Part shown: positions 178-488 of the stretch, piece by piece | Numbering within the stretch: position 1 is the first letter of the stretch | Layout of the letters: each line of letters starts with the position of its first letter | The notes under the pieces: generated by a model | Told to the model about the DNA's origin: nothing | The model's database searches: none | Seen by the model: the letters and a program-made list of their open reading frames with translations, nothing else | Origin: an uncultured Gammaproteobacteria bacterium | Lineage (GTDB): Bacteria > Patescibacteriota > Patescibacteriia > S139-126 | Assembly: GCA_964493305.1 (NCBI GenBank) | Contig: CAZBLW010000001.1 | Location: 113,484-177,483 of the forward strand | Direction of reading: 5' to 3' | Length of the DNA stretch: 64,000 nt | Made by a program: the position numbers and the translations under genes

Positions 178-236
178 CCAAGTAAAAACCCTGACTTTTG
201 GGTCAGGGTCTTTACTTTGGAGCGGGTAGGGGGAAT
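178..236. repeat. 59-nt direct repeat copy 1 (20 nt of tRNA-Gly 3' end plus terminator hairpin flank); second copy at 374-432
   Basis: ccaagtaaaaaccctgac...cagggtctttactttggagcgggtagggggaatc occurs at 178-236 and 374-432. The copies differ only by a small indel in the hairpin loop. Confidence 0.8.
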
Positions 237-260
237 CATCGCCTCCCGCTTCAGCGGGAC

Positions 261-350
261 TTGTCCTGGGTGCCAGCCAATCCTACGCTCGCTCGGATTG
301 TCTGTCGCTCGATTATTCGCTGACGCTCATATTTCGCTCGCACCCGTTCG
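261..350 (+). repeat. Conserved ~90-nt core element, copy A (inside a 137-bp segment between the two 59-nt repeats)
   Basis: 93% identical to the reverse complement of 53928-54017. Flanked on the left by an antisense tRNA-Gly 3' fragment (216-236) and on the right by gttcgcttcccc, which resembles the sense tRNA-Gly T-arm. Confidence 0.8.
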
Positions 351-413
351 CTTCCCCCTGTATTAAATTATTACCAAGTAAAAACCCTGACTTGTATGCC
401 AGGGTCTTTACTT

Positions 414-488
414 TGGAGCGGGTAGGGGGAATCGAACCCCCATCTTCAGCTTGGAAAGCTGTAATAATAGCCGTTATACTATACCCGC
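414..488 (-). tRNA. tRNA-Gly (anticodon UCC)
   Basis: Hand-folded cloverleaf on minus strand: 7-bp acceptor stem GCGGGTA/TACCCGC, T-arm GGGGGTTCGATTCCCCC, anticodon loop TTTCCAA, ends CCA. Confidence 0.85.

Follow-up and report, generated by a model that had tools for sequence, protein, structure and literature searches.

The closest documented system to the locus described here is that of the Dehalococcoides ssrA islands, which carry a CcrB-family serine integrase (DsiB) encoded on the reverse strand beside attL, have a mid-T-loop junction and 3'-end repeats of about 20 bp, form tandem arrays and possess a conserved motif just upstream of the repeat (PMC3146451). Fifteen of these islands have no integration module and have been read as cis-mobilisable elements (PMC3146451). 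More generally, partial tRNA genes lying next to complete ones are classic scars of integration (PMC9897764). Here we describe a 196-bp, gene-less repeat unit behind a tRNA-Gly gene, found in a 64-kb window (the whole stretch of DNA that was analysed) from a Patescibacteria (CPR) bacterium; the relatives of the DNA polymerase III delta subunit encoded there are labelled Patescibacteria or Parcubacteria by their sources. We give an even chance to the reading that this unit is an integrase-less, att-repeat-flanked miniature cassette, a CIME-like scar, from a family that recombines in the tRNA T-loop and whose conserved core serves as a structured end module.

The unit lies at the end of a four-gene tRNA cluster, Ile-Phe-Pro-Gly, identified with ARAGORN and Rfam on the minus strand at 414-946. 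The last gene of the cluster, tRNA-Gly(UCC) (414..488, minus strand), has its CCA encoded and is recognised by ARAGORN as well as by the Rfam tRNA model (61.9 bits). Our direct-repeat search returned a 70-nt pair at 168-237 and 364-433 (90% identity), the solid portion of which is 178-237 and 374-433, that is, 60 nt with 56 of 60 positions identical. The preliminary description of this DNA had reported 59-nt repeats at 178-236 and 374-432; the repeat itself is real, and those coordinates stop one base short at the tRNA end. In good agreement with that description, both copies hold the final 20 nt of tRNA-Gly and, within 40 nt of downstream sequence, a terminator hairpin. Repeat identity begins mid T-loop and extends through CCA, and the downstream part folds in both copies as a perfect 16-bp A-tract/U-tract hairpin (z about -6.5 to -7.0). 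The two copies had been said to differ only in the hairpin loop, with a compensatory-looking indel, which is not what the alignment contains: there are four substitutions and no indel, and one of the four falls in the stem (G.U versus A-U), the other three being in the loop. With just two occurrences in the window, the 60-nt repeat is no generic tRNA-flank repeat, the possibility against which its link to the core element had originally been weighed. The two copies are direct repeats of the 3' portion of a tRNA gene, and the segment of the proximal copy at 414-433 completes the intact tRNA-Gly.

Read in the tRNA sense, tRNA-Gly is followed by the terminator, a 15-nt AT-rich spacer, GGGGGAAG, a 91-nt core, a 22-nt linker, the 20-nt tRNA 3' fragment and a second terminator, all on the minus strand. 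The proximal repeat copy, DR1 (374..433), comprises the tRNA-Gly end (414-433) and the terminator hairpin (376-413; -23.5 kcal/mol, z -7.0). Between it and the core (260..350; 109.7 bits with our covariance model R1) lie the AT-rich spacer TAATAATTTAATACA (359..373) and GGGGGAAG (351..358). Joined to the 5 nt that follow, the latter complements the T-loop plus T-stem 3' strand of tRNA-Gly at 12 of 13 positions; this region can pair with TTCCCCC at 229-235. The variable linker (238..259) contains the small hairpin CCCGC-TGAA-GCGGG noticed earlier, and its GCTGAAG, together with a scrambled T-stem region, stretches the tRNA-like similarity to about 38 nt. The distal repeat copy, DR2 (178..237), consists of the tRNA-Gly 3' fragment (218-237, identical at 20 of 20 positions) and an intact hairpin (180-217; -23.6 kcal/mol), inside which a terminator-like scan match falls at 187-209. 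The inter-repeat segment, 238-373, is 136 nt long and has a GC content of 54%, as compared with 36% for the window. It holds no open reading frame longer than 49 aa, as expected from the earlier statement that it lacks coding capacity, and it gives no protein match and no Rfam match.

The core recurs once in the window: 260-350 matches 54018-53928 on the opposite strand (blastn, 85 of 91 positions identical), which bears out its description as conserved. Five of the six differences fall within a 7-nt patch of one hairpin loop, so that the remainder of the core is 98.8% identical. The surroundings of this second copy run, in order, through a ...CCGCCA end, a 16-17-bp hairpin, 17 nt, GGGATT, the core, a linker, a tRNA-Ser 3' end and the flank. 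Both units have a common layout: ...CCA, a hairpin of 36-40 nt, 15-17 nt, a T-arm complement and the core, followed on its 3' side by a linker of 20-22 nt and a tRNA 3' fragment. The Ser-side features are on the plus strand. The hairpin (53868..53905; -20.3 kcal/mol, z -10) comes directly after ...CCGCCA and is the positional counterpart of the Gly terminator; GGGATT and the second core (53928-54018) together occupy 53922..54018 (R1, 106.8 bits); and the linker (19-20 nt), the tRNA-Ser 3' fragment (54038-54056) and the flank fill 54019..54102. The flank is homologous to that behind tRNA-Ser(tga), with 54045-54102 resembling 54316-54373 (86%). We considered the end at 53862-53869, GCCCGCCA, as a possible tRNA fragment in its own right and found merely a loose resemblance to tRNA-Pro.

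Outside the core the two units have nothing in common, and none of the sequences compared contains another copy of their remaining parts. The 5' edge of the core complements the T-arm of the adjacent tRNA in both cases, GGGGGAAgCGAAC against GGGGGAATCGAAC for Gly (12 of 13 positions) and GGGATTCGAAC for Ser (11 of 11), where GGGATT is the complement of the tRNA-Ser T-loop/stem. The edge pairings differ by tRNA, being GGGGGAA/TTCCCCC for Gly and GGGATT/AATCCC for Ser. Because the edge is the complement of the T-loop and the T-stem 3' strand, it can pair with the tRNA fragment downstream. Point mutation cannot account for two near-identical cores whose complementary edges are tRNA-specific. The preliminary description had noted neither the structure of the core nor the complementarity between its 5' edge and the tRNA fragment beside it.

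The second core belongs to a variable region of 17.5 kb, which stretches from 36.5 to 54 kb and whose left boundary is tRNA-Ser(GGA) (36423..36513, plus strand; ARAGORN). The region is bounded by a 19-nt tRNA-Ser repeat, 36495-36513 being identical to 54038-54056 (19/19, 100%); as the fragment is the 3' end of tRNA-Ser(GGA), the second core sits at the right end of the 17.5-kb stretch. A prophage remnant lies within the region, whose cargo includes a large serine integrase, a type I restriction-modification system accompanied by an AAA ATPase, genes for the large and small terminase subunits, a DNA methylase, a LexA-like protein, a GIY-YIG protein and a 500-aa protein with an RNase HII domain. 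The last of these is patchily distributed, its relatives being scattered across bacteria and archaea at 50-70% identity. The serine integrase (44135..45463, minus strand) has Pfam Resolvase, Recombinase and Zn_ribbon_recom domains and matches PHROG integrase at 6e-63; its best NCBIfam match is CcrB at 5e-33, far below the cut-off of that model, and its relatives in the PDB are YokA/SprA (SPbeta) and the TP901-1 integrase. It is encoded in the middle of the region and not at attL, while the T-loop junction and the tRNA part of the repeat (19-20 nt) match islands of the CcrB/DsiB type.

This integrase is the sole recombinase within the 64-kb window, in which no tyrosine recombinase was found. 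No recombinase lies inside or adjoining the Gly unit, the serine integrase being 44 kb away in the tRNA-Ser-bounded region, and no adjacent autonomous element is present at tRNA-Gly within the window. The suggestion that the Gly unit is mobilised in trans by the recombinase of the island is not supported: the island offers a serine integrase only, it sits at tRNA-Ser, and the att-proximal sequences are not shared. Since the Gly and Ser units share the core and not the att-proximal sequence, one recombinase is unlikely to serve both.

Comparison with a sister strain (L008/L009, about 95% identical) shows the Ser-side core to be strain-variable. As far as 53869 the sister strain shares the cargo, and it shares tRNA-Ser(tga) too, but the Ser-side core and the tRNA-Ser fragment are missing: 254 nt of the window (hairpin, core, tRNA-Ser fragment and flank) are set against 94 nt of different sequence. 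The spacer has been replaced, and L008 is therefore no clean empty site. It also encodes a second serine integrase, on the reverse strand, 108 nt past tRNA-Ser(tga). As the same island cargo is found in L008 with no tRNA-Ser fragment at its right end, the notion of the core as the 'end' of the island is weakened.

For the tRNA-Gly site we compared related species that have contigs spanning it and whose holA is 74-75% identical to that of the window; holA, uvrB and folD give the branching order (window, (L018/L063, L026/L027)). In L018, L021 and L063 the tRNA cluster has the same orientation and a homologous terminator stands directly behind tRNA-Gly, from which it follows that the 60-nt repeat, terminator included, is native host sequence. 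After the terminator come a collinear spacer, with which the AT-rich spacer of the window aligns, and then a 75-nt stretch related to the core, without a distal copy of the repeat. This stretch scores 15-16, as compared with 8.5 +/- 1.4 for shuffled sequences and a maximum of 13 across 624 real 200-nt tiles. It is 61% identical to the core of the window and has a GC content of 30% against 54%, whereas the window and L018 agree at 75-84% of positions in their other orthologous spacers (z 9-39). The L018 sequence is accordingly no drifting neutral ortholog; this intergenic-spacer control ruled out our earlier view, in which the core had a conserved neutral ortholog there. A supposed decayed tRNA-Gly fragment in L018 was not significant (236 of 2000 shuffles reach its score). 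The L018 sequence is a much older relative at the same site, as would be expected if a family turned over at a fixed attachment site. In L026 and L027 the entire tRNA cluster is inverted and the core is absent. The DUF4349 gene follows there, apparently as in the window, and is missing from the L018/L021/L063 lineage. The presence of a 61%-identical relative in one lineage and the absence of the core from the other look like the pattern left by such turnover.

Taken together, the native repeat and the diverged core relative at the same site in another species make a single, simple, recent insertion doubtful. The order tRNA-Gly, terminator, spacer and core is collinear with L018, so the left half of the unit, at least, could be old resident sequence. 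The preliminary description had offered a solo att remnant or a non-autonomous mini-element. That remains the best available reading, given the lack of coding capacity, repeats whose identity begins in the T-loop, a canonical site of integration within tRNA genes, the shared core and the precedent of PMC3146451.

The cassette, as the best-supported reading, would be a minimal remnant or a cis-mobilisable derivative of T-loop-recombining elements. A circular element that carried copies of the operon terminator and of the 3' part of the tRNA would recombine with the tRNA gene in the T-loop. The copy brought by the element would complete the tRNA and supply its terminator, becoming DR1, and the displaced original 3' end and terminator would land on the far side as DR2. 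What remains between the repeats today would be the spacer, the 91-nt core and the 22-nt linker. The site-specific origin, the kind of recombinase and any present-day mobility are what we infer here; by analogy with the islands above, the recombinase may be a CcrB/DsiB-like serine integrase supplied from elsewhere. As to the core, our guess would be a folded RNA or single-stranded DNA with an assisting or regulatory part in recombination or expression at the element end.

Several observations speak for the cassette. Identity that starts mid T-loop and runs through CCA corresponds to the sublocation used by CcrB-type islands at the tmRNA gene (PMC3146451). A second core (85 of 91 positions) with an identical arrangement of parts lies at the right-hand end of a region full of mobile cargo, and there both the core and the fragment are missing from the sister strain. 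At its 5' edge the core varies in step with the tRNA, Gly or Ser, and the unit has no coding capacity and no protein or Rfam match. On the other side, the Gly unit has no recombinase of its own, and the only serine integrase of the window is tied to tRNA-Ser. The repeat is native, and the integrity of both terminators is also what selection on a functional duplicate would produce. None of the collections scanned yielded an empty site, an excision junction or a further copy, the short-read contigs of the organism ending in tRNA genes. A circle of 196 bp is moreover very small as a double-stranded substrate for recombination, which counts against the cassette.

Model R1, built from the core sequences, found no additional copy in 287 kb of related loci, and five sub-patterns of the core gave only chance matches in GC-rich DNA when run against viral, genome and metagenome collections (L001-L003, L035-L059). 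A blastn search against annotated phages and plasmids gave no match, and none of the 131 sites at which tRNA-Gly or tRNA-Ser 3' ends occur in viral contigs had a core nearby. One viral candidate (L069), first taken for a 4.7-kb element at the same 20-nt site, is really a phage tRNA array. The search for other solo copies, which the preliminary description had recommended, gave none in the collections scanned. In Rfam 15 only the tRNAs pass, and the core receives nothing but noise at E values up to 10. A tmRNA or permuted tmRNA was discarded as an identity for the core: ARAGORN and Rfam detect none, and a frame ending in ...AKSSA* is present in the Ser copy only. One antisense frame is open through both cores and was considered as a coding remnant, but it has no homologue or family; a protein search with the spurious open reading frame over the Ser-side core, aimed at other copies hidden in miscalled genes, returned zero matches.

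The cassette resembles the Dehalococcoides ssrA islands, and the SCC/pseudo-SCC elements, in that these include recombinase-less members, occur as tandem or neighbouring elements at the same type of site, have a conserved sequence just inside the distal repeat and have a CcrB-like serine integrase in the neighbourhood. It differs from them in several respects. The Gly unit is 196 bp long and gene-less, whereas the known cases measure kilobases and carry cargo; its repeat is 60 nt long and includes the host terminator, as against about 20 nt; its targets are ordinary tRNAs (Gly, Ser) and not tmRNA or rlmH; and the same internal module, with a T-arm-complementary edge, is found at two different tRNAs. 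The tRNA fragments that phages and islands with tyrosine integrases leave as attR scars, one case of a general phenomenon (PMC9897764), are like the unit in that the complete gene is followed by an incomplete 3' copy whose identity starts in the T-loop, with a weaker tRNA similarity further 5' (here to about 38 nt). In contrast to such scars, there is no tyrosine integrase in the window, and 136 nt separate the repeats instead of a gene-bearing element.

In the core, helix P1 pairs 340-345 with 268-273 (GGGTGC/GCACCC), and helix P3 pairs 295-300 with 278-283 (CAATCC/GGATTG) around an 11-nt loop (284-294); both helices are present in both window copies. In L018 and L063, P1 is GAGTGG/CAACTT (5 of 6 positions paired) and P3 is CAAGGC/GCTTTG (6 of 6). 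In a MAFFT alignment 87.5% of cells pair, a value that none of 500 shuffles reached; sliding the partners gives 22-45%. Across P1 and P3, four pairs show changes in both partners, and two G.U pairs hold only when the tRNA-sense strand is read. RNAalifold, run without a supplied structure, recovers the same helices and two more pairs, with eight two-sided changes kept in total. Conservation of the helices by compensatory changes appears to be real, with one independent diverged lineage as its basis. Fold z-scores are modest: the Gly unit has -3.0 and the Ser unit -0.9 to -1.7. A central stretch of the core, about 40 nt long, is rich in purines and unpaired. Complementarity of a guide-like kind between the variable P3 loop and the tRNA was considered and found too weak.

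Such a structure could belong to a small RNA gene linked to tRNA operons instead of to a mobile element, an alternative that is the main rival of the cassette although we consider it unlikely. Transcription would follow the tRNA sense, either reading through the first terminator or starting from a weak promoter, and the RNA would end in a tRNA-derived 3' module (T-stem strand, acceptor strand and CCA) and its own copy of the terminator. The 'direct repeat' would then be this module plus terminator, maintained by selection. Trailers of tRNA operons, that is, 3' external transcribed spacers such as 3'ETS-leuZ, can act as small RNAs. Like them, the core is non-coding and structured and lies on the same strand directly past the last tRNA of its operon; unlike them, it lies beyond a strong terminator, is accompanied by a second terminator and a tRNA 3' fragment, is strain-variable and is duplicated at another tRNA.

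Preservation of P1 and P3 between relatives only 61% identical, with four to eight two-sided changes and strand-specific G.U pairs, is what an RNA gene would lead one to expect, as are a GC-rich sequence amid an AT-rich genome, the z-score of the Gly unit and a closing stem that co-varies between the Gly and Ser paralogues. The repeat copies, moreover, differ mainly in the loop (three of four substitutions) with both hairpins intact, and the core is found at the same position behind tRNA-Gly in two species. These points are offset by the lack of an Rfam family and of a convincing promoter, by the weak z-score of the Ser copy and the long unpaired stretch in mid-core, and by covariation that comes from a single independent diverged lineage. 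The core is also less conserved than neutral spacers (61% against about 80%), which would be unusual for a host RNA gene; its absence from L026 and L027, together with that of the Ser copy from L008, shows that it is dispensable; and the Ser copy is surrounded by mobile cargo.

We regard as distinctly unlikely a functionless local rearrangement in which, with no dedicated recombinase, the tRNA 3' end and terminator were duplicated around a pre-existing core by homologous (Campbell-type) recombination, unequal crossing-over or template switching, the core later reaching the Ser locus by gene conversion or ectopic recombination. The native repeat, at 60 nt, is long enough for RecA-type recombination, and the neighbourhoods of these tRNA genes are evidently prone to rearrangement, as illustrated by a 79-nt insert behind tRNA-Ser(tga), by tandem tRNA-Pro 5' units and the inverted tRNA cluster in L026/L027, and by a loop inversion between L018 and L063. 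What this account leaves unexplained is the T-loop-exact start of the repeat in both units, the cognate T-arm complement at the 5' edge of both cores, the identical layout of the two units and the conserved helices.

In an improbable but distinctive reading, the core is a folded scaffold with exchangeable edges for structure- or RNA-assisted recombination into tRNA genes. Short segments, open to exchange and complementary to the T-arm and acceptor strand of the tRNA that is targeted, would lie on either side of the two-helix module; once folded, the strand, be it RNA or single-stranded DNA, would display or recognise the half-site of the target. In integron attC sites and in the CTX-phage attP(+) site used by XerCD, the stem closing a structured segment similarly restores a duplex that looks like the target half-site; in our case the closing duplex would be the T-stem, GGGGGAA/TTCCCCC or GGGATT/AATCCC, formed by two distant inverted segments. 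The analogy is structural only; the pairing spans 6-7 bp and has no link to IntI or Xer. If the scaffold were real, one near-identical module would serve tRNA-Gly and tRNA-Ser with no dedicated integrase nearby, as a programmable attachment module lying between the folding of integron attC or CTX attP(+) and guidance by bridge RNA.

It is still more improbable that the core is a MITE that landed by chance near tRNA ends and that the tRNA repeats are unrelated to it. A 10-bp imperfect inverted repeat near the core ends (GGGTGCGAGC and the complement of GCTGGCACCC, 9 of 10 positions) and two near-identical copies with abrupt borders would fit a MITE; against this, there is neither a target-site duplication nor a transposase, there are two copies in 64 kb and none across the 287 kb of related loci, what looks like an inverted repeat is the conserved helix P1 with its co-variation in L018, and both copies occur in the same tRNA-fragment context. 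We can hardly credit an assembly artefact that wrongly joined two strain variants of the tRNA-Gly terminator: positions 1-897 of the window are known from a single assembly, the Logan contigs of the organism all breaking inside the tRNA genes of the cluster, and terminator-loop variants exist among strains of a related species, but the 136 nt between the copies are unique and have a paralogue and a same-site relative elsewhere, the unrolling of an assembly bubble would not create them, and the source contig has a reported length of 558 kb.

The evidence base is thin for the cassette and for the RNA gene alike, consisting of two copies and one diverged lineage. If the core is a host small RNA, it would be a new RNA motif of a little-studied phylum. 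If the cassette reading is true, elements flanked by att sites in tRNA genes can shrink to about 200 bp while retaining a conserved structured module. A near-identical core flanked by complements of two different tRNAs could, furthermore, expose an unrecognised way in which attachment sites are chosen or remodelled. For annotation, tRNA fragments and duplicated terminators in such genomes would then serve as a warning, marking hot spots of recombination. Finally, on the cassette reading, the Patescibacteria, whose mobile elements are poorly known, would carry a family of modules that turns over at fixed tRNA sites.

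A strong hairpin stands behind every tRNA or tRNA-like CCA end in these units. Immediately 3′ of the CCA of tRNA-Ser(GGA), which forms the left boundary of the 17.5-kb variable region, window positions 36513-36575 carry a perfect palindrome of 18 nt (GTTCGTGCTAGCACGAAC) and, behind it, a strong terminator; the other hairpins of this kind are the one at 53868-53905 and the terminator behind tRNA-Gly. The loop of the tRNA-Gly terminator hairpin is reverse-complemented (7/9) between L018 (~9320-9335) and L063 (~545-560), two strains of a related species with 99% identity in holA, the DNA polymerase III delta subunit gene. 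This difference is a small hairpin-loop inversion.

Besides the Gly and Ser-side units, a third tiny insert of 79 nt is found immediately 3′ of tRNA-Ser(tga), at 54217-54335. It is bordered by a 20-nt direct repeat (54217-54236 = 54316-54335) in which 12 nt come from the 3′ end of the tRNA and 8 nt from the flank, and at the right end of the insert GCGGAG, complementary to the 3′ strand of the acceptor, occurs twice. The identical insert is present in two independent short-read Logan contigs (L006 and L007). All Logan contigs of the window organism (L004, L005, L006, L007, L014-L017, L060 and L061) terminate within tRNA genes, namely tRNA-Ile, tRNA-Ser(GGA) and tRNA-Ser(tga). Since the assemblies break there, the units flanking tRNAs are not visible in them, and strain variation at such units is systematically missed.

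The stretch at 53790-53869, at the edge of the Ser-side unit, carries a promoter-like TTGCTG-17-TATGATATAAT and behind it ~70 nt that run to ...GGTTCCAGCCCGAGGTAGCCCGCCA. Here the window and the sister strain L008 agree at 100%, against ~95% identity in the flanking genes; their homology breaks off precisely behind CCGCCAT, a 7-mer with which tRNA-Ser also ends. A small RNA and an old junction are both possible readings of this stretch. Through both core copies runs a single open frame antisense to the tRNA (217-366, plus strand; 53756-54094, minus strand; CPGCQPIL..LGLSVARLFADAHISLAPVR). As it has neither a family match nor a homologue among 5.8 billion proteins, this frame is probably not a gene.

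The protein encoded at positions 52199-53701 is 500 aa long; residues 91-299 form an RNase HII domain, and the C-terminal half has no domain assignment. The protein is highly conserved (50-70% identity) but taxonomically scattered, occurring in Zixibacteria, Elusimicrobia, Thermotogae, Thaumarchaeota and Thermoplasmatales, and its gene adjoins restriction-modification genes in L010-L013. We regard it as a candidate mobile defence gene.

Compared with window positions 414-946, the Ile-Phe-Pro-Gly tRNA cluster is inverted as a whole in two further related-species contigs, L026 (9286-9987) and L027; as a result, tRNA-Gly adjoins holA, with neither terminator nor core behind it. In both contigs the real tRNA-Pro is preceded by two tandem ~98-nt units (L026 9551-9745). 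Each unit in L026 consists, in order, of the first 15 nt of tRNA-Pro, a 31-nt GC-rich hairpin that represents an insertion in the D-loop, the remainder of the D-arm and an AT-rich upstream-like flank. These tandem units are a 5′-end counterpart of the repeat units built on tRNA 3′ ends at Gly and Ser.
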